A stretch of 64,000 nt of DNA, taken from the NCBI RefSeq assembly GCF_963921235.1, contig NC_086108.1:21948001-22012000 (forward strand), given 5' to 3'. Made by a program: the position numbers and the translations under genes. This document shows positions 6,789-60,750 of the stretch, piece after piece. The notes below the pieces were generated by a model that saw only the letters and a list, made by a program, of their open reading frames with translations, did not search any database and was not told the origin of the DNA. The DNA comes from Mobula hypostoma. Lineage: Eukaryota. Each line of letters begins with the position of its first letter. Position 1 is the stretch's first letter.

Positions 6789-7505
6789 CCATTTATCTCC
6801 TCCCTCACCTCCATTTGAAGTACCAAACAGTTCTTTCAGGTGAGGCAACTAGGATGAGTTTGCTAGGGTTATCCAGTGCTTCTAATGTGACCTCGTCTAC
6901 ATTTATGGGACGCTTTGCTGAGCACCTCCGCTCCATCTGCCACAAGTAGTAATTCCCGATGGCCAAACATTTGAATTCCATTTCCCCTTCCTGTTCCGAC
7001 ATGTCGGTCCATGGCCTACTCTTTTGCCACGTTGAGGCCGCCTCAGGGTGGAGGAACAACACCCTATATTCCGTCTGTGTGGTCTCCAACCTGAGAGCAT
7101 GAATATCAATTTCAACCATCTGGTAAGGAAAAAATTCCCTCCTCCTCCCCTCTTCTTCCATTCCCCACTCTGGCTTCTTACCTCTTCTCATCTACCTGTC
7201 ACCTTCCACTGGGTCCCCTCCTCTCCTTCCCTTTCTCCTGTAGTCCAATGTCCTCTTCTGCCAGATTCCTTCCTCGCCAGCCCTTGACCTTTCCTACTCA
7301 TCGAGCTTCACCTATCACCCTGCTAGCCTCTTTCTCTTCCCCTCACCTTTTTAATCTGGCATCTTCCTCCTTCCTTTCCAGTCCTGAAGAAGAGTCTCGA
7401 CCCGAATTGTCAACTGTTTATTCATTTCCATAGATGCTGCCTGATCTGCTGAGTTCATTCAACATTTTACATGTATTGCTTTAGATTTCAAGCATCTTGT
7501 TTATG
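6789..7505 (+). mobile_element. 5'-truncated Penelope-like element (GIY-YIG end plus terminal repeat), probable 16-bp TSD
   Basis: 'EEQHPIFRLCGLQPESMNINF' is a GIY-YIG C-terminus. Flanks AACTGTTAACAGTTCA (6773-6788) and AACTATCAACAGTTCA (7506-7521) match at 14/16. Confidence 0.85.
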
Positions 7506-9774
7506 AACTATCAACAGTTCATTCTCCATTTTGTTACTATTTTTCCCCAAGTACTGCCTCAGTGGCTTGCTGTGATAAATGGCTTGCATGCAGAACAAAA
7601 GTTTTCATACTTTCTCAGTATATGTGAATAATAAATCAATTTACCAGTTTAGGTGAAGGAAAGCTATTTCTGGTGCAACATACAGCAACAAGGGTCATAA
7701 ATTCATAATCAGTAGAGAGGATCATTTGAGGGTGACAGGCTAAAGGGAGAATACGAATCGACCATTCTTTCAAAGGGGCACCAAAATCAAGTTCCTTTGA
7801 TATATCTTGGCCAATTTCTCAATTTAGCTGCAGAAGTGATTGGGCTTCACTGCTGGATGATTCTGACGCCCACTTCTGCTCTGTGCAATAAAATTGAAGA
7901 CAAGCTTGAAAATTAGAAAGAGCAACTGCATATGCTGAATGGTTCATTTCTATGTTGGTAAACATTTGACATTGTAGCATGTCCAGGTTAAATTAAACGG
8001 AGGTTTGAAAGTTATTTGAGAAACTGCAATTCATTCAGCACATGGTACTGTAACTTGAGACTGAGCTCGATGCGAGTTCAGACAAAGCTAGCATTCTCCG
8101 CTCTATGGGATGGTGAGACCAAACATGAAAGAGTTTAGCACTGTAATTGACCTGGGAGTGCTTGATGTTTCCTGGGTGAAAATGGAAGTTTTATTTGTTC
8201 AGCAGTAATATTCTTCACCATAGGCATGGTCTGATGGGTAGCATGCTGTTTTAGCAGGATAGGAGAGTTCAAAACTGGAGGGCATGGGTTTAAAATGAGG
8301 TTTAAAAGAGACTTGCGGAGCATCTTTTTCAAACAAGCTGCCAGAGAAGTGGTAGAGTTGGGTACAATTATAAATTTTTAAAAAGTTGGACATGCGCATA
8401 GATAGAAAAGCTTTAGAGGGAAATGGGATTAGCTTGGTGGGCAAATTGGTTAGCATGGGCAAGTTCTAGGCACCTTTGTTGTCAAAGTATGTAGACAGAT
8501 AACAGGCCGTGTCTTCACAGGCTGCCGCTGGAACCCCTGTTTTCCCTTCCCTGACCACCACTCCGCAATCTCATCTCTCTCAGGTCCCACTGCCTGCTCT
8601 TGGGCCATTGGAGACTCCACCTTCCTCTAACACCACCACCCCTGAACACTCCAAACCTCCCTTCCCCTTAGTCACACCAATCCCCTTCCCCCACTCCGAT
8701 CCCAGCTCTCATCCATGCCAGGTTTTCACTATTCCCTCAGACCTTCCCCTCTCTGAGGCAGAATGTTCTGTCCTCAGCAGGGCCTCACTTTTGTTCCCCT
8801 GTGCCCACGCACTGAGTTCCGTGCCTGCCACAATGCTGAGCTCTTCTTTGGCCGCCTCTGTTTCTAAGCCTATTTCTTTGGCAAGGACCCCACCCCCCGC
8901 ACTGATGACCCCCTTCTCCCGTCTTCAACCCTCTTCCACTTTCTCTTCCTGAACACCCCGCCCTGGTCTTCTGCCTGTTCTGGACCCTTTCATTGCCAAC
9001 TGCCAATGGGACATAAACAGTCAATAATTTAACACTCCTCTCTCCTATTCCAACCTCATTCCTTCAGAGTGCTCGGCTCGCCACTAGTCCTAACCTCATC
9101 ATCAAACCTGCAGATAAGGGAAGTGCCGTAGTAGTCTGGTGAACTGACCTCTACCTTGCTGATGCCCGACACCAACTCTCAGACACCTCCTCTTACTTAC
9201 CCCTTGAACAGGACTTAAGGAACACCAGGCCATTGTCTCCCACACCATCATCAACCTTATTGACTCTGAGGATCTCACATCCACAGCCACCAACCTTATA
9301 GTTTCCATGCCCCACACCTCATGTTTCTACCTCCTAACCAAAATCCACAAACCCACTTGTCCAGGTAGAACTATTGTTTCAGCTTGTTCCTGCCCCACTG
9401 AACACGTCTGCATACCTTGACTCTGTTTTATCCCCCCCTGTTCAGTTCCTTCCTACTTACATCTGTGACACACCATGTGCTATTAATCTTTTCAAGGATT
9501 TCAGGTTCCCTAGCCCCCATCATCTTATTTTTACTATGGATGTCCAGTCTCTATATACCTCCATCCCTCACCAGGAAGGCCTCAAAGCTCATCGTTTCTT
9601 TCTGGACACCAGACCCAACTAGTTGCCCTCCAGCACCACTTTCCTCCGCCTAGTGGAACTTGTCATCACTCTAAATAATTTCTCCTTTGGGTCCTCCTAC
9701 TTCCTTCAAACAAAAGGGGTAGTCATGGGCACTCGTATGGGTCCCAGCTATGGCTGCCTGTTTTTCGTCTACAT

Positions 9775-12700
9775 AGAAACCATCGAAAAACTACAGCACA
9801 GAAACAGGCCTTTTGGGCCTTCTTGTCTGTGCCAAACCATTTTCTGCTTAGTCCCACTGACTTGCACACGGACCATATCCCTCCATTCACCTCCCATCCA
9901 TGTATCTGTCCAATTTATTCTTAAATGTTAAAAAAGAACCCGCATTTACCACCTCGTCTGGCAGCTCATTCCACGCTCCCACCACTCTCTGTGTGAAGAA
10001 GCCCCCCCAATGTTCCCTTTAAACTTTTCCCCCTTCACCCTTAACCCATGTCCTCTGGTTTTTTTCTTCCCTTGCCTCAGTGGAAAAAGCCTGCTTGCAT
10101 TCACTCTATCTATACCCATCATAATTTTATATACCTCTATCAAATCTCCCCTCATTCTTATAACCATATAACCATATAACAATTACAGCACGGAAACAGG
10201 CCGTCTCAGCCCTTCTAGTCCGTGCTGAACTCTTACTCTCACCTAGTCCCACCAACCTGCACTCAGCCCATAACCTTCCATTCCTTTCCTGTCCATATAT
10301 CTATCCAATTTAACTTTAAACGACAACATCGAACCTGCCTCAGCCTCTTCTGCTGGAAGCTCGTTCCACACAGCTACCACCCTCTGAGTAAAGAAGTTCC
10401 CCCTCATGTTACCCCTAAACTTTTGTCCTTTAACTCTCAACTCATGTCCTCTTGTTTGAATCTTTCCCACTCCCAATGGAAAAAGCCTATCCACATCAAC
10501 TCTATCAATCCCCTTCATAATTTTAAACACCTCTATCAAGTTCCCCCTCAACCTTCTACGCTCCAAAGAATAAAGACCTAACTTGTTCAACCTTTCTCTG
10601 TAACTTAGGAGATGAAACCCAGGCAACATTTTAGTAAACCTCCTCTGTACTCTCTCAATTTTATTGACATCTTTCTTATAATTCGGTGACCAGAACTGTA
10701 CACAATACTCCAAATTTGGCCTTACCAATGCCCTATACAATTTCAACATTACATCCCAACTCCTATACTCAATGCTCTGATTAATAAAGGCCAGCATACC
10801 AAAGGTTTTCTTCACCAACCTATCCACATGAGATTCCACCTTCAGGGAACTATGCACCATTATTCCTTGATCCCTCTGTTCTACAGCATTCTTCAATGCA
10901 CTACCATTTACCAGGTATGTCCTATTTTGATTAGTCCTACCAAAATGTAGCACCTCACATTTTTCAGCATTAAACTCCATCTGCCATCTTTCAGCCCACT
11001 CTTCTAACTGTCCTAAATCTCTCTTCAAGCTTTGGAAACCTACCTCATCATCCACAATGCCACCTATCTTAGTATCATCTGCAGACTTACTAATCCAACT
11101 TACCACCCCATCATCCAGATCATTAATATATATGACAAACAACATTGGTCCCAGTACAGATCCCTGAGGCACACCACTACACACCGTCCTCCAATCTGAC
11201 ACACAGTTATCCACCACTACTCTCTGGCGTCTCCCATCTATCCACTGCTGAATCCATTTTACTACTTCCATATTAATGCCCAATGGTTGAACCTTCCTAA
11301 CTAACCTTCCGTGTGAAACCTTGTCAAAGGCCTTACTGAAGTCCATATAGACAACATCCACCACTTTATCCTCGTCAACTTTCTTAGTAACCTCATCAAA
11401 AAATTCGGTAAGATTTGTCAAACATGACCTTCCACGCACAAATCCATGTTGACTGTTTCTAATCAGACTCTGTCTATCCAGATAATTACAGTGTATATAT
11501 ACCATCTCTAAGAATACTTTCCATCAATTTACCCACCACTCATGTCAAACTCACAGGCCGATAATTGCCAGGTTTACTCTTAGAACCCTTTTTAAACAAT
11601 GGAACCACATGAGCAATACGCCAGTTCTCCGACACCATCCCCGTTTCTAATGACATTTGAAATATTTTTGTCAGAGCCCCTGCTATTTCTTCACTAACTT
11701 CCCTCAAGGTCCTAGAGAATATCTTGTCCAGACCTGGAGACTTATCCACTTTTATATTCCTTAGAAGCGCCAGTACTTCCTCTTCTTTAATTGTCATACT
11801 TTCCATAACTACCCTTCTTGTTTCCTTTGCCTTACACAATTCAATATCCTTCTCCTTAGTGAATACCGAAGTAAAGAATTTGTTCAAAATCTCCCCCATC
11901 TCTTTTGGCTCCCTACATAGCTGTCCACTCTGATTCTCCAAAGGACCAATTTTATCCCTCACTATCCTTTTGCCACTAACATAGCTGTAGAAACCCTTTG
12001 GATTTATTTTCACCTTACTTGCCAAAGCAGCCTCGTATCTTCTTTTAGCTTTTCTAATTTCTTTCTTAAGATTCTTTTTCCATTCTTTATATTCCTCGAG
12101 TACCTCATTAACTCCAAGCTGCCTAACTTTATTGAAGATCCCTCTTTTTTTCTGAACCCAGTTTCCAATATCCCTTGAAAACCATGGCTCTCTCAAACTT
12201 TTAACCTTTCCTTTCAACCTAACAGGAACATAAAGATTCTGAACCCCCAAAATTTCACCTTTAAATGACCTCTATTTCTCTATTACATCCTTCCCATAAA
12301 ACAAATTGTCCCAATCCACTCCTTCTAAATCCTTTCGCATCCAGGGAATAAAGTCCTAACCTATTCAACCTTTCTCTGTAACTGAGTTTCTCAAGTCCTG
12401 GCAACATCCTTGTAAACCTTTTCTGCACTCTTTCAACCTTATTAATATCCTTCCTGTAATTTGGTGACCAAAACTGAACACAATACTCCAGATTCGGCCT
12501 CACCAATTCCTTATACAACTTCATTATAACATTCCAGCTCTTATACTCAATACTTTGATTAATAAAGGCCAATGTACCAAAAACTCTCTTTACGACCCTA
12601 TCTGCCTGTGATGCCGCTTTTAGGGAATTTTGTATCTGTATTCCCAGACTCCTCTGTTCTACTGCACTCCTCAGTGCCTTACCATTTACCCTGTATGTTC

Positions 12701-12953
12701 TACCTTCGTTTGTCCTTCCAAAGTGCAATACCTCACAGTTGTCTGTATTAAGCTCCATCTGCCATTTTTCAGCCCATTTTTCCAGCTGATCCAAATCCCT
12801 CTGCAAGCTTTGAAAACCTTCCTCACTGCCCCCTACACCTCCAATCTTTGTATCATCAGCAAATTTGCTGATCCAGTTTGCCATATTATCATCCAGATCA
12901 CTGATATAGATGACAAATAACAATGGACCCAGCACTGATCCCTGTGGCATACC
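9775..12953 (-). mobile_element. Outer 5'-truncated CR1 LINE (segments about 9775-10159 and 12341-12953)
   Basis: 'PQGSVLGPLLFVIYI...SKFADDTKIGG' at 12261-12950 continues into 'RMRGDLIEVYKIM' at 9946-10182 once the inner insertion is removed. Confidence 0.9.
10160..12340 (-). mobile_element. Inner 5'-truncated CR1 LINE (about 2.2 kb of ORF2, frameshifted)
   Basis: 420-aa and 236-aa ORFs with CR1 RT motifs (YMDFSKAFDKV, SGVPQGSVLGP, SADDTK). (TAACCATA)n tail at 10160-10180. Confidence 0.95.
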
Positions 12954-13122
12954 ACATGGAACAGTCTATGTTCCAAGCCTACACTGGTGATCACCCCGCA
13001 CTTTTCCTGCGCTACGTCAATAATTGCATTGGTGCTGCTTCCTGCACCCGTGCTGAGCTCGTCAATTTCATCCACTTTGCCTCCAACTTCCACCCTGTCC
13101 TCAAGTTCACCTGGTCCATTCA

Positions 13123-13385
<263 letters not shown>

Positions 13386-14654
13386 ATCTATTGATGTCTA
13401 TTATAAACTAATGGACTCTCACAGCTACCTGGACTATACTTTGTCCCATCCTGCTATTTGTAGAAATGCCATCCCATTCTCTCAATTCCTCCCTCTGTGC
13501 TACATCTGCTCTCAGGTTGAGGCTTTTCATTCTACAATGAAGGAAATGCCCTCCTTTTTTCAAAGAAAGAGGCCTCCTGTCCTCTGCCATCAACGCTGCC
13601 CTCAACCGCATCTCTTCCATTTCACGCACATTTGTTCTTACCCCATCCTCCCACTACGCTATAAGGGATAGGGTTCCTCTTGTCCTCACCTACCACCCCA
13701 CCACATAATTCTCCAAAACTTCTGCCACCTCCAACTGGATCACACAACCAAACATATCTTTCCCTTCCCCCCCACTTTCTGCTTTCCACAGGGGTCACTC
13801 CCTACACGACTCCCTTGTCCATTCATCCTTCCCCACTGATCTCCCTCCTGGCACTTATCCTTGCAAGCGGAACAAGTCCCTACACCTCCTCCCTCACTAC
13901 TATTCCGGGCTCTAAAGAGCCCTTCCAGTTGAGGTGACACTTCACCTGTCAGTCTGTTGGGGTAATATACTGTGTTCGGTGCTCTTGGTGTCTCCTTATA
14001 TCAGTGACCCAACATAGATTGAGAGATTGCTTCATCAAGCATGTACGTCCCGTCTGCCAGAACAAGCAGGATCTCCCAATGGTCACCCATTTTAATTCCA
14101 CTTCCTATTCCCATTCCAATATGACCATCGATGGCTTCCTCCACTGTCGTGATAAGGCCACATTTAGCTTGGAGGAACAACACCTTGTATTCCGTTTGGG
14201 TAGCCTCCAACCTGATGGCATGAACATCAGTTTCTCAAACTTCCAGTAATGCCCCCCTCCTTCACTATTTCCCATCTCCATTTCCCTCTCATGTTATCTC
14301 CTTGCCCATCCATCTGGTGCTCCTCACCCTCCCCCCCCCACTTTTTCTTTTTCCGTGGCCTTCCGTCTCTTTCACCAATCAACTTCCTAGCTCTTTGCTT
14401 CATTCGTCCCCAACCAAGTTTCACCTATCGCCTGGCATTTCTCTCTCCCCTCTCCCCCCTCTCCCCACCTTTCAAATCTACTCCTCAGCTTTTTTTTTTG
14501 TCCAGTCCTGCCGAAGAGTTTCAGCCCAAAACGTCGACTGTACTTTTTTTCCCTGGATGCTGCCTGGCCTGCTGAATTCCTGCAGTATTTTGTATGTGTT
14601 GCTCGAATTTCCAGCATCTGCAGATTTTCTCTTGTTTGTGCCACAGATTACAAC

Positions 14655-18754: not shown

Positions 18755-20745
18755 TGTAATATTAATGAGGCAGCTTACAGAGAAGAAGTCATCACCCTGA
18801 CACAGTGGTGTCAAGAAAACAACCTCTCCCTCAACATCACAAAATCAAAGGAGCTGGTTATGGACTACTGGAGGAATGGAGACAAGCTAGCCCCTATTGA
18901 CATCAATCACGGGACTCTGTAGAGAGTGGTGTGGACAGCCCAGTGCATCGGTAGATGTAAACTTCCCACTACAGGTGTCCCCCGCTTTTCGAACGTTCGC
19001 TTTACGAAACCTCACTGTTACGAAAGACCTACATTAGTTCCCTGTTTTCACTTACAGAAGGTGTTTTCACTGTTACAAATAAAGGCAGCGCACGGGAAAA
19101 GCAGCGCGCAAAAAAAATCAGCACGCGCCCGAGCAGCCGCTCTCCCCCGGATTCGGAACGGCATTCTAGCCGGCATTGCTTAAACACGTGCCTGTGAGTA
19201 GCCGTTATCAAGGTGAGCTCTAAGGTATTGGAAAAGCCTGAAAGAGCTCGTAAGGGTGTTGCATTTAGCATAAAACTAGACATAATTAAGTGTTTTGGTT
19301 GTGGTGAACGAGGTAAAGACAAGGCGAGTTTGGCTTGTGGAAGTTGATGAAGATGATGTTGAAGAGGCTTTGACATCCCATGACCAAGAACTGATAGATG
19401 AAGAGCTACTGCAATTGGAAGAGGAAGGGATAACAATCGAAACCGAATGCTGCAGCGAACAGGCCGCGGACAGATACCGATTCGCAGAGAATGCAGCGGT
19501 AGCTGGAATGCATCCAGCACGTCTTTAAGAAAAAAGCCGAAATTAACATGCTAATTAATTTAGTGCCGCCCGGCACGTAAATGTCGACCCAGATCAGAGG
19601 CGATTGGGTCGCCTCTGATCTGGGCTGACAATTACATGCCGAGCGGCACCTAATTAATTAGCATGTTTATTTCGGCTTTTTCTTAAAGACGTGCTGGATG
19701 CATTCCAGCTACCGCTGCATTCTCCGCGAATCGGTCTCTGTCCACGGCCTGTTCGCTGCAGCATTCGGTTTCGATTGTTATCCTTTCCTCTTCCAATTGC
19801 AGTAGCTCTTCATCTATCAGTTCTTGGTCATGGGATGTCAAAGCCTCTTCAACATCATCTTCATCAACTTCCACAAGCCAAACTCGCCTTGTCTTTACTT
19901 CGTTCACCACAATCAAAACACCATCATCAGTGTGCTCAACAAACCGTCTTCCCGATTCCAGTAAGTGATACTACACTGTACATACATTATTTCTACTTTA
20001 TAATAGGCTGTGTATTTTTACATGTTATTTGATATGATTTGGCAGTTTCATAGCTTAAAGGTTACTGGAGAGCGCTTGCGCCGTGTTTCTGCTGAGACCG
20101 CTTGCGTGAGATTTTCACTACGGTGGACAGTGCAGCAATGATTGTGGAAAAGTATTTCTACTTTATATAGGCTGTATATTTATCATATCATTCCTGCTTT
20201 TGCTATATGTTACTGTTATTTTAGGTTTTATGTGTTATTTGGCATGATTTGGTAGGTTATTTTTGGATCTGTGAATGCTCACAAATTTTTCCCATATAAA
20301 TAAATGGTAATTGCTTCTTCGCTTTACGACATTCTGGCTTACGAACCGTTTCATAGGAACACTCTACCTTCGGATGGCGGGGGAAACCTGTATTCAGGAC
20401 ATTTACAAAGACAGGTGTGTAAAAAGGGCCCGAAGGATCATGGGGGGCCCAAGTCATCCCAACCACAAACTGTTCCAGCTGCTACCATCTGGGAAATGGT
20501 ACCGCAGCATAAAAACCAGGACCAACAGACCTCAGGACAGCTTCTTCCACCAGGCCATCAGACTGCTTAACTCATGCTGTAATTCATGCTTAATTCAACT
20601 GTATTTCTATGTTATATTGACTCCTGTTGTACATAATATTTATTATAAATTGCATATTGCACATTTAGACAGAGATGGAACGTAAAGATTTTTATTCCTC
20701 ATGTATACGAAGGATGTATGTAATAAAATCAATTCATTTCAATTC
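18755..20745 (+). mobile_element. Rex1/Babar-type 3' fragment interrupted by a Tigger element
   Basis: 'EAAYREEVITLTQWCQENNLSLNITKSKELVMDY' on the left and 'IQDIYKDRC...LFQLLPSGKWYRSIKTRTNR' on the right join across the TA insertion site. Confidence 0.85.
18972..20390 (+). mobile_element. Non-autonomous Tigger/pogo-type DNA transposon with internal foldback
   Basis: TA on both sides (18970-18971, 20391-20392). Imperfect terminal inverted repeats (TIRs) CAGGTGTCCCCCGC / GCGGGGGAAACCTG. Acidic pogo-like remnant 'EVDEDDVEEALTSHDQELIDEELLQLEEE'. Confidence 0.85.
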
Positions 20746-24452: not shown

Positions 24453-24579
24453 GTAAACGTCGATATGCTACAAGATCAACAGGTGGAGTTCTCAAAAGGA
24501 CGAATGCTGCGGCGGACAGTTAGCGTTCCATCCGAGGGACAGTTCCCAGACTATCAACAGGATGGCAACACTAAACTGG
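24453..24579 (+). CDS. RASAL2: Internal coding exon of Ras GTPase-activating protein nGAP (N-terminal region of the long isoform; phase 0 to phase 1)
   Basis: Acceptor 'attcttgcacAG', donor 'G|GTGAGT', 127 bp. Encodes VNVDMLQDQQVEFSKGRMLRRTVSVPSEGQFPDYQQDGNTKL, collinear with human RASAL2 as recalled (IPVEGGQEQQTDSTKGRCLRRTVSVPSEGQFPEYPPEGATKL). Confidence 0.92.
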
Positions 24580-26692
24580 GTGAGTTCAGCCGGGCTGCAG
24601 TACTGAGTAATGCTTACTGATTGAATCTCTGGTTTTCACATCTTGATTGCACATTGTCTCTAAGGATGCCCTCTAATGGACAAAATGTGAAATCTAATTT
24701 GCAAAGGGAAACTATCTTTCCAGCTCAACAGGTAATGTCGCCATCTCCTGGCTGTTGTGTTAACTACCTGCCCAAGTTCAATACAGCTTGCTAGGGTCAC
24801 TTGTATATTTTTATTCTGCCCCTTTTCTCCCTAAAGCTCTTGTGTCCTGCTTCGTAAAATAAAAAGATTTAAAAATAGATATGTGAGATAATGTATTCCC
24901 GAATGAGTAGCTTGCATCAGCAGAATCAGTTCTCTGCACTGTTCGAAGATTTCCTTTTTGGGAAATTTGGTGTTTTTTGGAAATGTGATTTTGGAGATAC
25001 AAAATCAGTTGTGAGGAATGGGATTTGTTTGTCTAAAACACAAACCCTTTTATGAAACAACATTTTGTTTAAAAATGTTCAACATTTTGTTTGTTTTCAA
25101 TCAAAATATTTTGTCTGATTTTGGTAGAATTTCTAATCAGACTGGAGAAGTTTCAATGAGTTTTGAAAGGCCTGGAACAAAATTAAAACAAAGCTGCCAA
25201 TGAATTTCAGTTCTATGAGGTATGATGTGAGAGATTCCAATGAATTTGAGAAGTAGCCTCATGGTAGAGCTTGAACCATTACTGCTCAAAATGTTATTGA
25301 TCTTGTTTGAGAAGTATGAGATATTACTGCTTTGACTCAGTTCCTTTTCCCAGTAAGGGAATAAATGCATTCTTTTTATATGCCATCTTTCCAGTAGCAT
25401 GGTGAAGATTGAGATCATTAAATTGTGACTATTAATAGGTTATGTTTTACATCACTGTACAAAGCTGCTCGAAAACCCAAGTCATAATTATTTCTGTTTT
25501 GTTGGGAAAATTCTCCCTTTTTTTTCAATTTATCTCTGTAATTTAAGCAGTGTTATTTTCGACTGGGATCATGCCTCATTTTCTGTCACTTTTATTTGGG
25601 AAAAGAAAATTGAACATATCTCTTTGTAGAATTTGTGAACATAAAACACAAAAATTCCAGTAACTATTTTATGTTGACCTTTGTTAATTGTTGGAACTCG
25701 TTCAAATTTCACTCCCAGTACTGAATAATGCTGTGTTTTATTTGACATGATATGCAGAAATAAGTTATACCCTAAGATGGCCATTACTGCTGTATAATAT
25801 TGTTATTCCAAAATTTTCCTAACTTCAGAGCAAAAAAACAAATGACTGGAGGAAGTCAGCAGGTCAGGCAGTATATGTGGAGGTGAAGGGTAAGATCTGG
25901 GTCAAGATCTGGGCCATGAACCAATTTTATGTATCTTTCTTCACAATGGAATAATTTTAACGTGCCCAGGTAAATTTGGGGGTTGGGGCTACTTAAGTCT
26001 TAACAAGGGTAGAAATGACTTTATGAAATGATAGGACTGAAGGCTGACAAGACTGCAAGTCTAATTGGCTACAGAAATTAGTTCTGTGATATAGCAAAAT
26101 TCCCTAATTCCATCGAGGCAATGATTTCATGTCCTACATAAGATGAAGCAAGACAGCAAATGGGAGACTGTTGGAATTCATTATGAAGGAAGTAACTGCA
26201 GGATACCCAGAAAATCACAGTATCACCAAACCAAGGTGAACTTAAGGGCAACCATTATGATGAATCAAAGTTTGTTGAGGATGTCCTTGGCACTGTGGGT
26301 AAGAGGAATGTGTTTGGATTTTCCAGTGGTTGCTGATAAGGCACCACATAAAAGGTAATTTCCCAAGGCAAAAGTCTGTTGAGATAGGTGTAACATAGTA
26401 AGAAGAACAGTTGGATGGGTACCAGAGCAGACAAGATTGTTGAAATAAATGAGTCATTTTCAGGTGATGAAACTGTACTTTCTGGGGTTCCAGAGGGATC
26501 ACTGTTAATGATTCAACTGTTTACAATCAATGACATGGACCCCAAGAATATAAACAAGAAAGTTCCAAGTAAATTTATTATCAAAGTACATATAAGTTGC
26601 CATATGCTTGAGATTTACTAATAGGCTCAGGAATAGTCGATTTGAATGCTCATGCCTAGTCTGCTAATCATTCACTTCTTGGGTGATATCAT

Positions 26693-28986
26693 GCAAACAC
26701 AAGAAAATCTGCATGTGTTGGAATTTCAAGCAACACACACAAAATGCTGGTGGAATGCAGCAGGCCAGGGAGCATCTATAGGAAGAAGTACAGTCAACAT
26801 TTTGGGTCGAGACCCTTCGTCAGGACTATCTGAAAGATGAGATAGTAAGAGATTTGAAAGTGGGAGGGGGAGATCTGAAATGATAGGAGAAGACAGGAGG
26901 GGGAGGGATGGAGCTAAGAGCTGGGAAGTTGATTGGCAAAAGGGATACAGAGGTGGAGAAGGGGGAGTGTCATGGGACGGAAGGCCTTGGAAGAAAGAAA
27001 AGGGGAGGGGAGCACCAGAGGAAGATGGAGAACAGCAAGGAGTTATTGTGAGAGAGAAAGAGAGAGAAAATAAATTAAATAGGGATGGGGGTAAGAAGAG
27101 GAGGAGGGGCATTAACGGAAGTTAGAGAAATCAATGTTCATGTTATCAGGTTGGAGGCTACCCTGATGGAATATAAGGTGTTATTCCTCCAACCTGAGTG
27201 TGGCTTCATCTCGACAGTAGAGGAGGCCATGGATTGACATATCAGAACGGGAATGGGACGTGGAATTAAAATGTGTGGCCACTGGGAGATCCTTCTTCCT
27301 CTGGTGGACAGAGTGTAGGTGTTCAGGGAAGCAGTCTCCCAGTCTGCGTCGGGTCTCACCAATATATAGAAGGCCACACTGGGAGCACCAGACACAATAT
27401 ATCACACCAGCAGACTCACAGGTGAAGTGTCACCTCACCTGGAAGGACTGTCTGGGGCCCTGAATGGTGGTGTGGGAGGAAGTGTAGAGGCATGTGTAGC
27501 ACTTGTTCTGCTTACAAGGAGAAGTGCCAGGAGGGAGATCGGTGGGAAGGGATGAGGGGGACGACTGGACAGGGAGTTGTGTAGGGGTGATCCCTGTGGA
27601 AAGCAGAAAGTGGGGGGGTGGAAGGAAAGATGTGCTTAGTGGTGGGATCCTGTTAGAGATGACGGAAGTTACGGAGTATTATATGTTGGACACGGAGGCT
27701 GGTGGGGTGGTAGGTGAGGACAAGGGGAACCCTATCCCTGGTGGGGTGGCGGGAGGATGGGGTGAGAGCAGATGTGTGTGAAATGGGAGAGATGCGTTTG
27801 AGGGCAGAGTTGATGGTGGAGGAAGGGAAGCCCCGTTCTTTAAAAAAGGAAGAGATCTCCTTCGTCCTGGAATGAAAAGCCTCATTCTGAGAGCAGATGC
27901 GGCAGAGACGGAGGAATTGCGAGAAGGGGATGGCATTTTTACAAGTAACAGGGCAGGAAGAGGGATAGTCCAGGCAGCTGTGATTTAGCAATAAAAAGAT
28001 CCAGAGCAGGCAGGAAACTAGAGCGGGGTGTTCATGAAGAGGAGGAGGGTTGAAGACAGGAGAAGGGGTCATCGGTGGGGGTAGGAGAGTCCTTGCCAAA
28101 GAAGTAAGCTCGAAGATGGAGCCAGCAGAAGAAGAGTTCAGCGTCATGGCACACATGCTACACCTGCCCTTACACTTCCTCCCTCACCACCATTCAGGGC
28201 CCCAGACAGTCCTTCCAGGTGAGGCGACGGTTCACCTGTGAGTCTGCTAGTGTGATATACTGTGTCCGGTGCTCCTGGTGTGGCCTTCTATATATTGGTG
28301 AGACCCGATGCAGATTGGGAGACCGCTTCGCTGAACACCTACGCTTTGTCCGCCAGAGGAAGCAGGATCTCCCAGTGGCCACACATTTTAATTCCACGTC
28401 CCATTCCCATTCTGATATGTCTATCCATGACCTCCTCTGCTGTCAAGATGAAGCCACACACAGGTTGGAGGAACAACACCTTATATTCAGTCAGGGTAGC
28501 CTCCAACCTGATGGCATGAATATTGATTTCTCTAACTTCTGTTAATGCCCTTCCTCCCCTTCTTGCCCCAACCCTATTTATTTATTTATCTATCTATCTA
28601 GCTATTTATTTATTTATTTATTTATTCGTTCATTCATTCATTCATTCTCTCTTTCCCTCTCACAATCACTCCTTGCCTGTTCTCCATCTTCCTCTGGTGC
28701 TTCTCTCCCCCTTTCTTTCTTCCAAGGCCTTCCGTCTCACAATACTCCCCCTTCTCCAGCCTTGTATCCCTTTTGCCAATCAACTTCCTAACTCTCGGCT
28801 TCACCCCTCGCCCTCCTGTCTTCTATCATTCCGGCTCTCCCCTTCCCCCTCCCACTTTCAAATCTCTTACTATCTTTTTTTCCTGTTAGTCCTGATGAAG
28901 GGTCTCGACCCGAGACATTGACTGTACTTCTTCCTGTAGATGCTGTCTGGCCTGCTGCGTTCCACCAGCACTTTTTGTGTGTTGCA
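26693..28986. mobile_element. Inverted (tails-out) Penelope-like insertion: minus arm about 26693-28140, plus arm about 28147-28986
   Basis: Both arms encode GIY-YIG 'IYCV.CS.CGLLYIGETR.RLGD.F.EHL'. Flanked by TGATATCAT at 26684-26692 and 28987-28995. Confidence 0.9.
28887..28924 (+). ncRNA. Degenerate minimal type I hammerhead ribozyme motif in a PLE terminus (best-preserved helix II; other copies at 7379, 14503, 26791 on minus, 55348 and 59878)
   Basis: AGTC-CTGATGA-A-GGGTCTCGACCC-GAGA-CA-TT-GACT. Helix I is AGTC/GACT and the CUGAUGA box is intact, but the GAAA box is mutated to GAGA. Confidence 0.75.
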
Positions 28987-29029
28987 TGATATCATTCCTA
29001 CTTTCCTGGGCTTCTGTAAATCCCTCTGC

Positions 29030-38420: not shown

Positions 38421-38432
38421 CTTCCCCCCTTT
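38421..38432 (-). promoter_or_regulatory. Polypurine tract
   Basis: Minus-strand AAAGGGGGAAG-type purine run directly abutting the 3' LTR. Confidence 0.85.
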
Positions 38433-38594
38433 AAAGGATTTTTACCGGGAGGTAAAAATTACAAACATGACTACATTATTTGATACACACACAAATATGC
38501 ATCTTTATCAGTTATTTGGCTAATACAGAGAATTTGAAGCTGTCAACGCCTTGACAGACAGTCATCACATTTTCTGTTCCTTTTACACGTGTTG

Positions 38595-39590
38595 TTAATA
38601 ATCCCTTAGACCAGGCTCCAACTCAGCAAACTTCATAGTGGCCAAAAACACTGATGAATTGCGACCAGTGTAACCTCTCATTTGGTTTTGTCCCGGACCA
38701 CAATAACAAGGGTCGTCCCATTCCGACTCAGTTTTCTCTCGCAAGGGCTTAGTAGGAGGGGAACGGGTATTGACCGCAGAGTTATTGCAAAACTTCCTGC
38801 AGTACCCCACCATCTCCAAGAGCCTTCTGAGGGCCCTCTTGTCTGTCGGGCTTGGGAGGTCAGCGATAGCCTGCACTGTAGCTTGCATCACTGCCAGCTG
38901 CTCCTGTGTCACCACAATTCCCAGGTAAGTGACCCTCGTGTGGCCGAATTCATTTTTTTCAAGGTTCACTATCAAACTGGCTTCAGACAGCCATATTAAA
39001 TTGCCAATACACACCTCTGTGTTCATCAGCCCTTTAGTCACTGAATTACTCATTAAATATGGGTGTTGTTTACTTGGCTGCCCTATTGTAACCACAATCA
39101 CCCAACGTCCCAGTTCTTTGCATTTCCTCGGGACAATCAAACACATGGGTGCGAGTCGTTTAATTACTTCTGCTAAAGATTCGCTTTGTTTGGGGATTAA
39201 GGGAGAGACCTTATCAGTAGACCTGGCCAAAACAATAGCCTTCTCCCATCTGACCGATCCCATCCTAATCTTTTCAAAATGGTTTTTTCCTCTTATCAGG
39301 GGGCCCCTAGCTTCTTTGATTTCCACGCTAACACCGACTAGGTTTGTTAGCATATCAAAAGCCGGTGACCGTCTCAGTTCGCGTCGGTCATGATCAATAA
39401 CATTTTTCCCCCTGGGCAGCCGGTAAATCTCTTTCATGATTCCACCAACTGTTTCCTCCAGCACCGCAAAATGTCCACCGGGTGGTACCTCGTGGGCCAT
39501 GTTAAAAACCTCATCCCCATAACTCTTTTGCACCACCCCCCACTCCTCATCTGCGGATACTGTCCTTGATTTCCCTTTCCTCCTCCGCAC
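38595..39590 (-). pseudogene. Pol remnant: integrase N-terminal His region joined to an RT C-terminal/connection fragment
   Basis: 'ADEEWGVV...AHEVPPGGHFAV' followed by 'LIVNLEKNEFGHTRVTYLGIVV...VQAIADLPSPTDKRALRRLLEMVGYCRKF'. No DDE core, YxDD or RNase H is recognisable. Confidence 0.75.
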
Positions 39591-41424
39591 AATAGCTTGT
39601 CAAGGCTGTGTCAGAGAGAGCGGTCTCTGCCACAACTATCAGCCCCTCGTCTCGCTCCTGCGTCTGCACAAATTCTTTCCTGGCTACTGCTACGTCCGTC
39701 CCAGCTCCCTCACTACCTCTTATCTCACTACACCCTGTCTCATACAAGGTTGGCAAAAATGTTTCAGCTAAATTCACTATCGCGGGCCCGCGATGAACCT
39801 GTGAGTCCAGGGGCGGGGCCTCAATGCTGGCAGGCTGATCTGTCAATCTCACGACTGGGAACACGATTCCTCCGGCGATGTCATTACCGAGCAAGACTTC
39901 CACGTCTTTCATCGGTAATTCGGACCTCACCCCGATCGTGACTAGTCCAGAGACCAGGTTGCTCTGTAAGTGTATCTGGTGCAAAGGGACTGACTCTGTC
40001 CCTTCCCCAACACCTTTGACCTCTACCTCCCCAGTCTGGGTCTCTGAGCTAAACTCTAATACACTCTTCAGTATTAGTGACTGACACGCTCCCGTGTCTC
40101 TCCAGATCCGCACTGGAACTGGTTTTAACCTCTCCTTCACTGACACCAGTCCGGCCGAGATAATCCTCTCGCGCCCTTCCTGGACTTTTTCAGACCTGTC
40201 CTTCCCTAGCGGTTCGCTTAACAGCTCGATACAGCCATTCAAAATTTCCGCTTTTCCTTTCCCCATCTGCTTCCTTGGGGCAAAGCACCTGGACGCAAAG
40301 TGTCCGACTTTCCCACAATTATAACAGACGACCCCAGGAGTCTTCCTACCAGACTGCTTCCGGTCTACCTTATCCTTTTCACTAGTCCCCGGCTTACTTT
40401 CTGACTTTTCCGGCGGACTCTCCCCACCGTCCTGACTACCCTTCTGGTAGCCTTTACTCGGGGCAAACTTCATTTTATGCGTCAACGCATACTCATCCGC
40501 TAACTTAGCAGTTGCGGCTAATGTGGCTGCCTCTTTCTCATCGAGGTAGGGTCTCATACCCTCAGGGACACAACCTTTAAACTGCTCAATCAGGATCAGC
40601 TGCAGCAGTCTGTCATAATCCCCCTCTACCCCATTCGAGGCGCACCAACGCTCACAATATGTTTGCATCTCAAGGGCAAACTCCAAATACGTGCGGTCCC
40701 ACTGCTTCCTCGCATTCCGGAACCTCTGCCGGTATGCCTCCGGGACCAACTCATAAATCCTGAGGATGGCCTCTTTCACCACCTCATACCTCTGGGCATC
40801 TTCCGCGGACAAAGCTGAGTAAGCTTCTTGGGCCTTCCCTTTCAGTACACTCTGAAGTAACACAACCCACTTATCCCTCGGCCAGTCCTGACTTATAGCC
40901 ACTTTTTCGAAGTGGAGAAAGTACCGATCCACGTCGGTATCGTCAAATGGGGGAACCAGCCTAACCTCCTGGGTCGCCCGGAACCCTCCACCTTGGTTCG
41001 GCACGAGCCCCTGCTCGGCCCTTATCTTTAACTTCTCCAGCTCAAATTCCCTTTCCCTCTGTTTCCCTCTCTCTTCTCGCTCCCATTGCTTCTCTTTCTC
41101 CTCTCTCTCTAACTGTCTCTCTCTCTCTTTCTCTTCTCTTTCCAACTGTCGTACCCGGAACTCGTGCTCGAGTCTCAGTTTTTCAAACTGTACCTGTACC
41201 GCGTCTCCAGCAGGTTTTTCAATAGACACCACCCCCAGCTCACCTTGGGGAAACACACCTTTAGATACATAGTGCTCTACAATAGCTCTGTGTATCTCCT
41301 CTCTCCTCATTGTCGACTTCACCTTAGCAAGATTTAACCGTTTGGCCACAGCTATCAATTCCGATTTCCTGGCATCCTCTAATGCCTCCAAGGTCAGCGC
41401 CTTTAGAAATTCCTCAGCCTCCAT
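39547..41424 (-). CDS. Retrotransposon Gag-protease (SCAN-like capsid, CCHC knuckle, aspartic protease), 625 aa
   Basis: 'YELVPEAYRQRFR...LLQLILIEQFKGCVP...AKLADEY' (SCAN-like), CYNCGKVGHFASRC, 'IWRDTGACQS', 'VLLGND'. Confidence 0.92.
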   Translation of the reverse strand: MEAEEFLKALTLEALEDARKSELIAVAKRLNLAKVKSTMRREEIHRAIVEHYVSKGVFPQGELGVVSIEKPAGDAVQVQFEKLRLEHEFRVRQLEREEKERERQLEREEKEKQWEREERGKQREREFELEKLKIRAEQGLVPNQGGGFRATQEVRLVPPFDDTDVDRYFLHFEKVAISQDWPRDKWVVLLQSVLKGKAQEAYSALSAEDAQRYEVVKEAILRIYELVPEAYRQRFRNARKQWDRTYLEFALEMQTYCERWCASNGVEGDYDRLLQLILIEQFKGCVPEGMRPYLDEKEAATLAATAKLADEYALTHKMKFAPSKGYQKGSQDGGESPPEKSESKPGTSEKDKVDRKQSGRKTPGVVCYNCGKVGHFASRCFAPRKQMGKGKAEILNGCIELLSEPLGKDRSEKVQEGRERIISAGLVSVKERLKPVPVRIWRDTGACQSLILKSVLEFSSETQTGEVEVKGVGEGTESVPLHQIHLQSNLVSGLVTIGVRSELPMKDVEVLLGNDIAGGIVFPVVRLTDQPASIEAPPLDSQVHRGPAIVNLAETFLPTLYETGCSEIRGSEGAGTDVAVARKEFVQTQERDEGLIVVAETALSDTALTSYCAEEEREIKDSIRR

Positions 41425-41500
41425 TTCTGCTGTTTGTCTTTTCTTTCTTTCGAGAATTTTAACCCAATCAATTTACTCTGTCCCAAATTTAGCGTTCAAA

Positions 41501-41518
41501 ATCCTGGACGAGCCCCCA
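41501..41518 (-). promoter_or_regulatory. tRNA-Pro primer binding site
   Basis: Minus strand TGGGGGCTCGTCCAGGAT, a 17/18 match to the canonical Pro PBS TGGGGGCTCGTCCGGGAT, 4 nt from the 5' LTR. Confidence 0.92.
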
Positions 41519-41522
41519 CTTA

Positions 41523-42365
41523 TGTTACGTACCCCGTAACTGGGTTGCCAAACCAGCAGAAATGGATCACTCAGTTGGAGTCTGGAGTACTAGAACTAAG
41601 AAAGTTTTATTAAAGAAACAAGCAACACAGTAATCGAAAGGATAATAAATGCAACAGTTCAGCGATGATAAACACACATGTGCACAGAATTAAGATAACA
41701 GCATCAATCAAGCTCTATCGTTGTCTAGGGGTAAATGACCAAATTTCAAAGTGACTCAAAGTTCAGTTCGCAGTAATCGTTGCCATGGCGATGGACAACG
41801 TGGGGGAAGAGAGAGATAGAACAGGAACAACTGATCATTCAGAACGGCTTCACTCACAGACCGGCGAGATTGCTCACAAGCAACTTTTGGGCGGGTCCTT
41901 GGTGATGTCACCTGAGGTCACTGACTGTGATCCCTCCTCCAGATATGGTCGATCCTCTGCAGTGAACCCGGCACCCAGGCAAGGGCGGACACACACCGGG
42001 TTCCCGCGGATCGTACCTTTCCACCCTGGTCGTTGTCTGGTACTTCTCACCCACTCGTGAGAGGCGCACCGCTTCCAGGATCTCGTTACCTCGGGTGGCG
42101 TGTGTGTCTGTCTTAGTGAACCTGTCCCTTTTTATCCCCCTGCTGGGGCATCACCTGTCCATCACTTCAAACAGTTCAAGGTTCAAAGGGGGGAGCCGCT
42201 CCAGACAGCTCTCTCTCTCCCGTTCCTTCATTACACATCTCCAGACGCTGCTCCATTGTTCCTTATCTCTCCTTCCCCTGAGGGCAGGTGGCAGACCACT
42301 TGCTGATGTCACTGATGCTAACCCAGGCCAGCAAACATCTTAATTTTATGTGTATTCTCGTCACA
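41523..42365 (-). repeat. 5' LTR (843 bp)
   Basis: Direct repeat of 37578-38420. I saw two substitutions. Confidence 0.97.
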
Positions 42366-43380
42366 CTAGCCACAGAGTCATGAGTGTTGAGAGAGTAGAA
42401 CAGTGGATTAAGTATGCATCCTTGAGGTGTTCCAGTGTGATTGTCGGCAAGAGGAGTTGCTGTTTCTGATTCGCATTGACTGTCAAGAATCTCAGTTCTA
42501 CGGAGAGGTACATAGGCCCAGGTTTTGAAGTTTGTTGATTAGTACTGTGGGGATGATGGCATTGAATACTGATAAATGGCAACATGACCTGTACATTGAG
42601 GTTCTCCACTTGTTTGTTTGCTTGAATTAAATTTTCCACTCAGAAATAATATTTTCCCTTGATTAATCTTGACAAAATTTAGAAAATACATTCCTTGTCC
42701 ATTTATCTCTTGAATGAGGAATGCCAGCTTTTATAATCAATCTTCATGAAACATTTAAAACCGAGAATCATCTTGCAACTCTTTTCTTCACCCACTCAAT
42801 ATCATCTTTTTGAACAGATCCAGGTTGGAATCCTTTTTCTAGCTGAGACTTAAAGAATTTATTGTGAAAGGACTGGATAAATAGAATCATCCTTGTCCAC
42901 CTTTACATTATGTCTCTCGGTTTTTATGTATTCTAAGTGTGGTTTATCCAAAGTTGAATTTATGTTTAACATACCTCCTTGGCTTTTGTAGAAGTTAGCT
43001 TTTATACTTTCTGTGTCATTTTTCTAGTTGTGCTACTACTTTTAATGTTTTATGGATCTACAGAATGTCACTTAGTGTCTTGGATTCCAAATGTGGTACT
43101 AATGATTGAAGGTGTCAGTGCTGAATTTGAAAACCTTTGGGCAAATTGCAAATGTAAATGTGTTGATTCTAAAGTAGCTTGTTTTAGTAAATGCTTAAAT
43201 GATTATTCTCACTCTCTGTTGTTTCTGCCTTTCACATTATTGCATATACAGTACTATGCAAAAGTCTTAGGCACATGTATATAGATGGGATGCCTAAGAC
43301 TTTTTGCACAGGATTGTAGTAATTTTATGTATTGCACTGTACTGCTGCAGCAAATGGGAAAAACAATTTCATGATATATA

Positions 43381-48100: not shown

Positions 48101-48277
48101 TGCCTTCTGATGGAGATCTGGGCATTTGTGCTTTTTGTAGATGGCAGAAATGCTACAGCCATAGTGTGCAGTGTCATGGGAATGGTCAGTTGATAAAACA
48201 AGTGAAGAGTATTCAATTACACAAAACCTGCTGGTTACATTTTGCAGGTCAGGCAGAAGCTGTGAGAAATTGAGCTA

Positions 48278-53817: not shown

Positions 53818-54664
53818 TTATTTTGATATTTTACAACTAATTTTGAAGTTACAGCAGATTTCTTCTGAAGTGCTCATTTTGTCTCCCTTGCTGCCTGTTG
53901 TTAGTGCACTAATTTAAATCTAAATCAAATGACTTTAGAAGCATGCAAATGCACGGTATATCAGGGTTCAAATTAAGTTCACAAATGGGAAGGGCTGAGA
54001 AGCCTTTGGGCATTCTGCAAATCAAAATGAAACTTGTAAGTATGCAGCTGTCATTGGGTGAAGTGGCAAAGAATCATTGTTGTCTATGTAACGTGCTAAT
54101 GCTGTTAAGTCTGTGTAATGCTGTACAGTCCGGGGGATATACCCCAGCAGAGTAGAGTACACAAATGAAAGAAAAAGGGTTGGTGGCCTTTATTTATGGA
54201 CAGGAGCCATAATTCAAACAGAAACAAACAGAAGCTTGTCTAACACTGGAGAAATTGATACCGAGTTTGAAGGCTCCACTGTGCCCAGATGAACGGTAGT
54301 GTTGTTCCTTGAAACCATGTTGAATGTCATTTCGACAGTGAAAGAGGCCACATTCAGAGATGTTGGAGTGGAAATGTGATGGGCAATTGAAGTGGCAGAT
54401 ATCTGGAAGTTCAGGGTTATGCTTGCAGACTGAGCAGTGATTTTCTGTAAAGTGATCACCTAACTTTCTGTATATTTGTTTTTTCCCAACGTGGAGGAGA
54501 CCATATTGTTGACATTGAATATAATATATGAGATTCGAAATAATTCAAGTGAATTGCTGCATTATGTGGAACGAATGATTGAGTCCCAAGATACTGGGAA
54601 GGGAAGAGTTCAAAGGACAGCCATTATATCTCCTGCATGGGAGAGTACCTTTGCATTTGAAGTT

Positions 54665-55347: not shown

Positions 55348-55472
55348 CTGACGAAGGGTTGCGGCCCAAAACGTTGACTGTTCGTTTCCACGGATGCTGC
55401 CCGACCTGCTGAGTTCCTCCAGCGTGTTGTGAGTGTTGCTCTGACCCCAGCATCTGCAGAGTATTTTGTGTT
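55348..55472 (+). mobile_element. Solo PLE terminal fragment beginning at the hammerhead core
   Basis: CTGACGA-A-GGGTTGCGGCCC-AAAA-CG-TT-GACTG followed by the 'gatgctgcccgacctgctgagttcctccagc' tail. Confidence 0.8.
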
Positions 55473-57153: not shown

Positions 57154-57218
57154 ACATACATACATATATATATATATACTTACATATGTGTGTGTGTATG
57201 TATGTGTGTGTATATATA
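57055..57218. repeat. Compound repeat: about four 12-mer CTACCCTCCCTT units, then (TG)n and (TA)n
   Basis: Directly visible. Confidence 0.9.
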
Positions 57219-57224
57219 AATTAA

Positions 57225-57890: not shown

Positions 57891-58949
57891 TTTCATATAC
57901 CTCAATTTAATCTCCCTTCTGCTTCATTTATAGCTGGGTTAACAACCTCAGCTGAACTCAATTCATATGCCATTTTAGTGATTTCCTTGTGAATGTCCTT
58001 TGATTCTAAATAATGCTCTTAATGTATCCTTCAACTTGTTGTGTTTACAGTGCCTTATTTGTCCTTCTCAAAAATATTTCAGACTGAACTTCATTTATCA
58101 CATACCTATCTGAATGTATTGATAATTCCAGAAGGCTAATGCCTTCTTTGTGATTGGGCACACTGCCATTTTTTTGTGTATTGGACATGGTTTGGCTATT
58201 TAAATACAAATCATTAATGCAGATTTATCATGCAAATCAACAAATCCTATACTGTTCCCTGAAGAATACCTTTGCCTGCAACCTTTCGTTCATTTAAACT
58301 CTTACCCACACATATTGTGACCTTTTGCAGTCACTAAGCAAGTTTTACATCCATTGGCTTTGATTTTGCTAAATTGCTTCTTTATGTGTCAGATGTGCGG
58401 CCCTCCACATCCCTTCATGTTATCTCTTCAAAAATTTGCATCACCCGTGCAAACTTGAACGAAGGCTTGGCAAGACAAAAATATAATTGAACTTGGGAGG
58501 AGTCTGAAGTGTAGATGTTCCAGCCATGGTCAAGGTATGCTCCCCTGACAGAAAAGTGTGGAGAAACTAAAACCAGAGTTCTATTGATCTTAATAAAAAA
58601 ATACTGAAAAGAAGATCAGTTGCCATGTGTTAACACATGAAAGCTAGGCTGATAACAGTAACTTCAGAGGGTAAGCAAAACAAAAACAAAATGAGTAAGG
58701 CAAAGAAAACACGAGGAAACCTGGCAATAAAAATATGCCATAGCCAATGAATAGGAAAATGGAAACATAAGACACTGAAGATGCTGGAATCTGGGGCACA
58801 AAACAAATTGCTGGAAGAACTCAACTGGTCATCTATGGAGGCAAATGAATGGTTGCCATTTTGGGTCCAAGACCCTGCATCAGATGCTAAAAACCCACTG
58901 AGTTCCTCCAGCAGTGTTTTTTTTAAACAGGAAAAGGACTGTAAGAGGT

Positions 58950-60750
58950 GGAATTGACCAAGGTCCGAAGAAGACTTACTGATGAAAGCAATGGTCATAG
59001 CACAGGTATTAACTGACTATTTTGTATCAGTTTTCAACAAGGAAGAAGAAGCTGCTAAAATATCAACAAAGAAAGATAAAACTGATATTGTTGATAGGAT
59101 TAAAGTAGGTAAAAAGAGGAAGTACTTCAATCACAAACAAGAGAGAAATCCAAGTAACACACGCAAAATGCTGGAAGAACTCAGCAGGCTCTTACAAGCA
59201 GAACAAGTGCTACACCTGCTCCTACACTTCCTCCCTCACTACCATTCAGGGCCACTTGAAGGTGAGGCAACACTTCACCTGTGAGTCTGTTGGGGTCAAC
59301 GACTGTATCCGGTGCTCCTGGTGTGGTCTCCTGTATATCAGTGAGACCTGACATAGATTGGGAGACTGCTTCGGCAGGCACCTGTTCTCCGTCCACCAGA
59401 AAAAGCAGGATCTCCCAGTGGCTACCCATTTTAATTCTACTTCCCATTCCCATTCTGACATGTCAGTGCTTGCCTCTTCTACTGCTGCGATGAAACCACA
59501 CTCAGGCTGGAGGAGCAACACCTTGTATTTAGTCTGGGTAGCCTCCAAACTGATGGGATGAACATTGATTTCTCAAGCTTCCAATAATGCTTCCCCCCAC
59601 ACTTCGACATACCCCATTCCTGTTTCCCACTCTCACCTTATCTCCTTACCTGTCCATCACCCCCCTCCGGTGCTCCTCCCCCTTCCCTTTCTTCCATGTC
59701 CTTCGGTCCTCTCCGCTCAGGTTCCCTTTCTCCAGCCCTTTATCTCTTTCACCAATCGACTTCTCAGCTCTTCACTTCAACCCCTCCCCTTCTCCCAATT
59801 TCACCTATCACCTACTAGGTTATGTTTTTTCTTCCCCCACCCCCACCTTCTTACTCTGACTTCTCATCTTTTTTCTCCAGTCCTGATGAAGCGTCTGGCT
59901 TGTAATGTCGACTGTTTATTCTTTTCCATAGATGCTGCCTGGTCTGCTGAGTCCCTCCAGCATTTTGTGTGTGTTGAAGAGGAGGTACTTAATGGTTTAA
60001 CTCTATTGAGATGATAAAACACATGGTCTAGTCGGTCTGTATCCTAGGTTGTTGAAGGAAGTGAGAGGAGTTAGACATGTTCTGTACGTAATCGAATTCA
60101 GGGGGTGTGCTTGGGTACTGGAGAATTATTAATGGTACACATTTATTCAAAACCAGATGTTGGGATGAACCTGGTTATAACAGACCAGTCAGTTTAATTT
60201 CAGTGACGCTGAGGCTCTGGAAAGTATCATCAGAAACTGAAATTTACTGTCACTTTAGTGGATTGAATATAGGGAGGCTGCACTGATTTGTTAAAGACAA
60301 AACACCTAACTCACTGGGTAATACTTCCTGATCAGTTACTGGAGAGAATTAATGGGGAAGTGTGGTTGATATGCCAGTTATAAACATCCAAATGACATTG
60401 GATAAGATGGCATATCATAGGTATTCTATCAAAACTGAAGAAAACAGAATATAGCCACTATTGGTGGAAGGGTCAAGAACCTGGGAACATAAAATGAAAG
60501 TAATTGACAAGAGCAAAAAATTAGATGAGGAAATTTAATTTTTGCAACATAGGTTGGAATATGGAATGCACTGTCAAGGGTATTACTGGAGGCAGATTCA
60601 GATGTAGCATTTGAAAGGGAGTTGGATAAGTATGTAAAATGAAAGATTTTCTCGGGGCCAATAGGGAAAAGGATAGTGAGTGACATCAGCTGCATTGCTC
60701 GTGCATACATTCAGTGTTATTGATGGGCCAAATTGTCTCTTCCTGTGCTG
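58950..60750 (+). mobile_element. Very old CR1 remnant interrupted by a PLE
   Basis: 'AQVLTDYFVSVFNKE' on the left. 'gtatcctaggttgttgaaggaag', 'ataacagaccagtcagttta' and a CR1-like 3' end on the right. Confidence 0.6.
59128..59976 (+). mobile_element. 5'-truncated PLE preceded by a short inverted copy of its own tail, 14-bp TSD
   Basis: TSD AAGAGGAAGTACTT (59114-59127) / AAGAGGAGGTACTT (59977-59990). Inverted tail at about 59128-59190. GIY-YIG remnants. Confidence 0.88.

Follow-up and report, generated by a model that had tools for sequence, protein, structure and literature searches.

Here we analyze a set of short repeated motifs in a 64,000-nucleotide stretch of the genome of the ray Mobula hypostoma (NC_086108.1, positions 21,948,001 to 22,012,000; hereafter the window, numbered from its first letter). 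We conclude with high confidence that these motifs are mutated versions of the minimal type I hammerhead ribozyme that a Neptune-type Penelope-like element (PLE) carries in its terminal repeat, brought in by five insertions into two introns of the ray gene RASAL2, and that they are likely inert. An earlier annotation of this stretch (the original prediction) had described the motif as a minimal hammerhead recurring at PLE termini and scattered, mostly in sense, through a RASAL2 intron.

Six related motifs of 33–38 nt lie at the coordinates and on the strands originally reported, and the weaker seventh reported with them is recovered by a profile search built from the six (nhmmer, E = 1.3e-8). 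An eighth motif, absent from that earlier list, was found with nhmmer at 3721–3758 on the minus strand (E = 0.001). The six are copies of one repeat, and the originally proposed consensus, searched as a 25-letter pattern with up to 3 mismatches, gives 3 matches compared with 0.00 in 100 shuffles. That consensus is nevertheless cleaner than every single window copy. A whole core is found in 0/6 individual copies (0/8 counting the two weaker ones), and a scan of both strands of the window with a minimal-hammerhead descriptor, which the original prediction had named as a check, returned 0 intact motifs; with one core mismatch allowed it returned 2, compared with a mean of 0.83 in 12 shuffles. The CUGANGA box is whole in 5 of the 6 copies, the exception being 14503. 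The GAAA box is whole in none of them (in order of position GAAT, AAAA, AAAA, GAGA, AAAA and GTAA, with G12 kept in 3/6), such that the GAAA originally described was a reconstruction that holds for the family consensus and not for these six copies. The other two elements of the described motif are kept in some copies, with the ACGU palindrome whole in two copies (14503 and 55348) and not in the other four, and the GUC triplet present in three (7379, 14503 and 59878) and not in the remaining three.

At the level of the family the entire core is present, and the proposed identity of the motif, a minimal type I hammerhead from a PLE terminal repeat, stands. The CpG-aware consensus of the six copies contains the complete core with ACGU and C17, as well as the CUGANGA box followed by one unpaired base before helix II, and matches every term of the PLE minimal-hammerhead consensus published in PMC4209133. 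We compared this with contigs of relatives, using 4 runs of 4 organisms (4 of 24 listed) aligned to the 26791 copy at 80% likeness; two of the four runs are presumed to be RNA-derived, depths are summed over contigs and do not equal copy numbers, and the reference carries decayed letters, so the alignment favours those letters. G12 makes up 43, 78, 64 and 57% of depth in the four runs (a majority in 3/4), C15.2 makes up 43, 79, 71 and 57%, and C17 makes up 42, 77, 52 and 54%, the reference letters at these three positions being the products of CpG decay. No change is listed at the 10% threshold in the 4 runs at the remaining invariant core positions, with A13 to A15.1 unchanged and C3 to A9 varying only at N7; in 2/4 runs helix I loses its fourth pair in 19–29% of depth, without a listed change in the partner. 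One stingray protein model translates through another copy as P-E-T-S-T, a reading that requires G12, A13, A15.1, C15.2, U16.1 and C17. The family is very abundant, with 2,246 to 32,401 contigs per run aligned on 251 bases. Searches of metagenome contigs, viral contigs and prokaryote genomes for exact patterns of the motif and of the flank downstream of it gave 0 loci. The eighth window copy, in which both closing pairs are altered on both sides, hints at an older PLE subfamily with compensated stems, though it is one damaged copy.

The carrier element is recognizable around most of the motifs (Table 1). Five of the six sit 250–340 nt past the endonuclease stop on the element's sense strand, and the sixth (55348) belongs to a short end fragment. 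The originally proposed location at PLE termini therefore applies to the terminal repeat and not to the extreme end, since the predicted cut position lies ~66 nt from untailed ends and ~95–107 nt from tailed ends. The motifs at 26791 (minus) and 28887 (plus) are the two arms of one insertion, meaning that the six motifs represent five insertion events: the arms are 91% complementary over 424 nt, only the left arm has a tail (37 nt), and a 9-bp target-site duplication (TGATATCAT) lies at 26684–26692 and 28987–28995, where a chance control found at least 9 exact shared letters in 7/2000 random window pairs. The same combination of an inverted 5'-truncated partner, a one-sided tail and a target-site duplication is seen in the 59878 copy, with its duplication at 59114–59129 and 59977–59992 (14/16 letters). 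The 7379 copy has a candidate duplication at 6773–6788 and 7506–7521 (14/16 letters), that of the longest copy is weak (8495–8504 and 14643–14652, 9/10 letters), and none was convincing at the insertion edges of three mini-copies. One such mini-element, at ~58760–58916 with the 58851 motif, has a short inverted arm with its junction at C3. The longest copy retains reverse transcriptase (RT) pieces at 9536–9778 and 12917–13120, and its endonuclease reaches 14246. Inside it lies a minus-strand frame of a long interspersed nuclear element (LINE) at 10243–11523, a 426-aa open RT frame (Pfam RVT_1, E = 3.9e-23), and the window holds many LINE fragments.

The open frame at 28108–28545 matches Pfam GIY-YIG with E = 0.0069, below the curated cut-off, and its 7 near-full-length matches (of 10) are ray and skate proteins with 61–88% identity. 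A CX4CXXC linker is whole in the 26791 arm (~27500–27530, minus), reading CKQNKCYTC, with CKRNKCYTC in ray homologues. Craig et al. (PMC8557442) describe the linker zinc finger in Neptune and Nematis, not in Penelope or Poseidon. We assign the element to the Neptune type, the class being set by the CX2-5CxxC linker motif rather than by an RT tree, and Nematis having a related linker. Separately, an older PLE endonuclease relic lies at 54236–54649 (minus), with 32–41% identity to ray PLE proteins and no motif found by eye or with nhmmer in the 420 nt behind it. Translated PLE pieces also occur in public ray gene models (mucin-2, divergent protein kinase domain 1C, chitinase domain-containing 1 and sirtuin-3), where they may represent either exonisation or annotation artefacts.

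Table 1 Motif copies, carrier elements and host exon in the window
Feature	Position	Strand	Details
Decayed minimal hammerhead	7379–7416	+	A15.1 to U, C15.2 to U, G1.1 to A, helix II mismatch
Decayed minimal hammerhead	14503–14540	+	A6 to C, G12 to A, helix II mismatch
Decayed minimal hammerhead	26791–26828	-	G12 to A, C15.2 to U; U at 17
Decayed minimal hammerhead	28887–28924	+	A14 to G, G16.2 to A; U at 17
Decayed minimal hammerhead	55348–55380	+	G12 to A; begins at C3, without 5' strand of helix I
Decayed minimal hammerhead	59878–59914	+	A13 to U, helix II broken
Seventh motif, heavily decayed	58851–58888	-	Inside mini-element ~58760–58916
Eighth motif, older variant	3721–3758	-	GAAA intact, first box damaged; helix II closes A-U, helix I closes U-A
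5'-truncated PLE copy, motif 7379 at 3' end	~6789–7505	+	Endonuclease homology 6783–7125
Longest PLE copy, motif 14503 at 3' end	~8505–14642	+	Split by LINE pieces and a microsatellite
Single PLE insertion, two head-to-head inverted 5'-truncated arms	26693–28985		Motifs 26791 (left, tailed arm) and 28887 (right, untailed arm)
GIY-YIG endonuclease open frame, C-terminal, CCHH residues	28108–28545	+	VIY...YIG, CxxC, two histidines
End fragment, 120 nt, without endonuclease, motif 55348	to ~55466	+	Motif begins at C3
PLE copy, motif 59878 at untailed end	~59130–59976	+	Short inverted arm ~59130–59190 carries tail
RASAL2 (nGAP) coding exon	24453–24579	+	AG before, GT after; 100% identity to two ray proteins

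In line with the original prediction, the PLE family likely processes its RNA by self-cleavage. In the parent element, two motifs would pair via the ACGU palindrome, each lending its CUGANGA–helix II–GAAA half and cutting its partner after position 17; in such a dimer, one motif would supply CUGANGA, helix II and GAAA, and the other the cleavage site. The reaction would likely be slow and aided by the element's own protein, and cleavage would trim or release tandem transcripts. Target-primed reverse transcription would start ~65–105 nt downstream of the motif, and because the motif is close to the element end, short 5'-truncated copies still carry it; after insertion, copies would decay through CpG loss and random change. 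Published minimal motifs are reported not to cut as monomers and to cut weakly as dimers (PMC4209133), a review gives the same weak-dimer result together with a second study (PMC6765202), and an anole PLE motif was reported to be cleaved only with the element's protein (PMC11167929). Our folding of the computed consensus with ViennaRNA, which leaves tertiary core contacts unscored, pairs the first box with the cleavage triplet in the monomer (-14.2 kcal/mol) and places the active dimer at -19.3 vs. -38.5 kcal/mol for an inactive duplex, and both the monomer misfold and the low-energy duplex agree with a poor stand-alone ribozyme. Folding the 8 copies singly gave no advantage over shuffled sequence in 8/8 cases (z between -1.36 and +1.72).

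These folds would also suit a different account of the parent element, which we consider possible but rather unlikely, namely that the motif is hammerhead-derived yet performs no needed cutting even there, serving instead as a folding or protein-binding signal or persisting as a passenger. Core mutants of the anole PLE were reported to insert normally in vitro, making cleavage dispensable in that setting, with zero RNA-seq ends at the cut site (PMC11167929), and Naiad PLEs are described as having spread without canonical hammerheads (PMC8557442). Conversely, the core is retained over PLE clades from cnidarians to reptiles and dimers do cleave, if weakly, in vitro (PMC4209133), the anole motif cleaves with protein and shows C3/G8 rescue (PMC11167929), and the older variant at 3721–3758 keeps GAAA although both of its closing pairs differ. 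This alternative is about the parent element, and the window copies could be relics under it as well.

In 5/5 long copies (7379, 14503, 26791, 28887 and 59878) the 5' strand of helix I reads as a pyrimidine tract (72–84%) followed by CAG or TAG, several endonuclease stops resemble a GTAA donor, and in Drosophila virilis Penelope an intron end is placed at the 5' strand of helix I (PMC4209133). Two mini-copies begin at C3, namely 55348 (plus) and the 58851 copy (58883, minus), and among the 15 of 32 contig joints listed, 5 are opposite-strand joints, of which 4 fall at 26823–26827 (the motif 5' edge) and the fifth at 26792, leaving the cut (26796/26795) without any. It is conceivable, although we are doubtful, that the 5' strand of helix I also serves as a 3' splice site, whereby splicing would switch the ribozyme between two forms in distant PLE clades, and that this edge favours an RT stop or turn-back, yielding the C3 mini-copies. 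A protein search for splice-acceptor use with the motif frame gave 1 match among 18 candidates, which translates through the YAG rather than starting from it and does not support acceptor use, and no spliced joint occurs among the same 15 of 32 contig joints.

With regard to the host gene, RASAL2 is on the plus strand, and 5/6 motifs are in sense to it, as first noted. Six RASAL2 proteins searched against the window matched only the exon at 24453–24579, and because this exon lies between the copies, they occupy the two introns flanking it instead of the single intron originally claimed. The excess of sense copies is non-significant (5/6, p = 0.22; 5/7, p = 0.45; 5/8, p = 0.73), and two of the six motifs are opposite in strand by construction, being arms of one insertion. 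Core positions differ from the consensus about as often as the downstream flank (7/66 vs. 34/281, Fisher p = 0.83; endonuclease 142/1063), a comparison of low power given just 66 core cells and a consensus derived from the same copies, and the better preservation of core than flanks that would mark a domesticated intronic hammerhead was not seen in these counts. CpG sites in the motif differ in 16/59 cells, compared with 20/168 at other sites.

Each of the six copies has a lesion in the enzyme half (A6, G12, A13, A14 or A15.1). Positions A6, A13, A14 and A15.1 are required in the hammerhead core. G12 is described as the general base of the hammerhead (PMC6155905). As all six lesions fall in the enzyme half, no pairing in the pre-mRNA yields a complete core, and since every window copy is core-broken, the copies are probably inert relics. 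The earlier picture of sense ribozymes scattered through a host intron is thus not borne out, as all copies are core-broken, decay is neutral and strand bias is non-significant. Conserved intronic hammerheads are reported in amniotes (PMC6155905), and the sense pairs within each RASAL2 intron are 7.1 kb and 4.5 kb apart, so one could imagine that the sense copies still cut RASAL2 pre-mRNA in cis as dimers and regulate the host gene; the enzyme-half lesions in 6/6, the equal decay of core and flanks, the non-significant strand excess and the 0 intact motifs found by the descriptor make this very improbable.

Several observations weigh against our interpretation of the motifs as hammerhead-derived relics of a Neptune-type PLE. 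An Rfam scan of the window shows no hammerhead at the gathering score (0 matches) or among 20 matches up to E 10. Covariation is thin across the 8 rows of window copies, with 2 two-sided pairs (matched by 325/500 shuffles) and none in helix II as aligned, and some cells with two-sided changes belong to copies in which flank or junction sequence occupies the 5' strand. To these we add the low power of the decay comparison, the lower energy of the inactive duplex and the class assignment by linker motif. Overall pairing across the 8 window copies is 81.9% of cells, compared with 23–46% when the alignment is slid, with 18/500 shuffles equally high. An accidental likeness, in which an ordinary repeat end was read through an adjusted consensus, would account for the absence of GAAA in 6/6 copies, the Rfam result, the weak covariation and the closeness of descriptor near-matches to shuffles, but it is scarcely credible and largely refuted by the contigs of four organisms, in which the missing core letters are present and mostly predominate, and by the fit of the consensus to all published terms at the usual position of PLE hammerheads.

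Among known systems, the ray motif most directly recalls the minimal hammerheads in PLE pseudo-long terminal repeats (pLTRs) described in PMC4209133. Features shared with the motifs presented there include a U-rich lead-in, a helix I of 3–5 bp, CUGANGA with one extra base, a G-C pair closing helix II, GAAA, a palindromic C-G replacing helix III, UH, and a location at the 3' end of copies that are 5'-truncated; the core is laid out identically in the rows for Acropora Neptune and Xenopus tropicalis (2). We saw no cartilaginous fish in the alignment and table of that paper, and the ray motif differs from its motifs in a 4-bp helix II with a 4-nt loop and in that the window copies are all core-broken. 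The endonuclease-bearing PLEs of the Neptune clade, as characterized in PMC8557442, share the C-terminal GIY-YIG domain with CCHH and the CX2-5CxxC linker, together with an inverted 5'-truncated partner, a 30–40 bp tail at one end and variable target-site duplications, whereas the window lacks both a complete frame and a tandem that includes a 5' pLTR. The anole Poseidon element PAc (PMC11167929) likewise has its hammerhead inside the pLTR and, downstream of the hammerhead, two 3' ends separated by a tail; it differs in belonging to a clade without the linker zinc finger and in its measured cleavage, which was protein-assisted and dispensable for insertion.

Two further systems offer partial parallels. 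Animal non-LTR retrozymes (bioRxiv 10.64898/2026.07.22.740005) share a type I hammerhead derived from PLE repeats, and that 2026 preprint reports hammerhead tandems in one chondrichthyan genome. We rejected a retrozyme as the source here: retrozymes consist of head-to-tail tandems with whole ribozymes, compared with window copies that are 2–26 kb apart, single or inverted, never whole and mostly joined to endonuclease sequence. Amniote intronic hammerheads (RECK and others; PMC6155905) are also of type I and lie in vertebrate gene introns, but they are described as whole and conserved at one locus, whereas the ray copies are minimal, broken and decaying like their flanks. The ray motif is thus of a known kind and at most extends it to a new host lineage, the cartilaginous fish; beyond the 2026 preprint, whose supplements may list the family, we found no account of this PLE family in rays in the literature searched, a search that lay outside subscription journals, Repbase and Dfam.

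The window also contains other repeats. Further short, heavily decayed repeat-end pieces with little or no motif lie at 25820–25881 (minus), 48218–48268 (minus) and 31249–31292 (plus). A long terminal repeat (LTR) retrotransposon at 37578–42400 (minus), with long repeats starting at 37578 and 41523 (300 nt at 100%), a 641-aa Gag-like frame with SCAN and zinc-knuckle (39547–41472) and a shortened pol-like frame (38595–39599), looks young and internally deleted. An inverted repeat at 19290–19921, with arms of 245 nt at 98% and 73 nt at 89% around a 5-nt centre, overlaps an acidic open frame and is probably a folded-back DNA transposon relic.

Together, these results widen the known host range of a motif first described in 2014 to include a cartilaginous fish, an extension of little weight as found, and they counsel caution, in that intronic hammerhead look-alikes in ray genomes are, for the most part, retroelement relics. 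The window holds broken copies only and is therefore unsuited to a test of PLE hammerhead function. Because the family is very abundant, however, ray genomes could provide a well-powered test of whether transposition depends on PLE hammerheads and of whether the cut is recorded at the ends of insertions.

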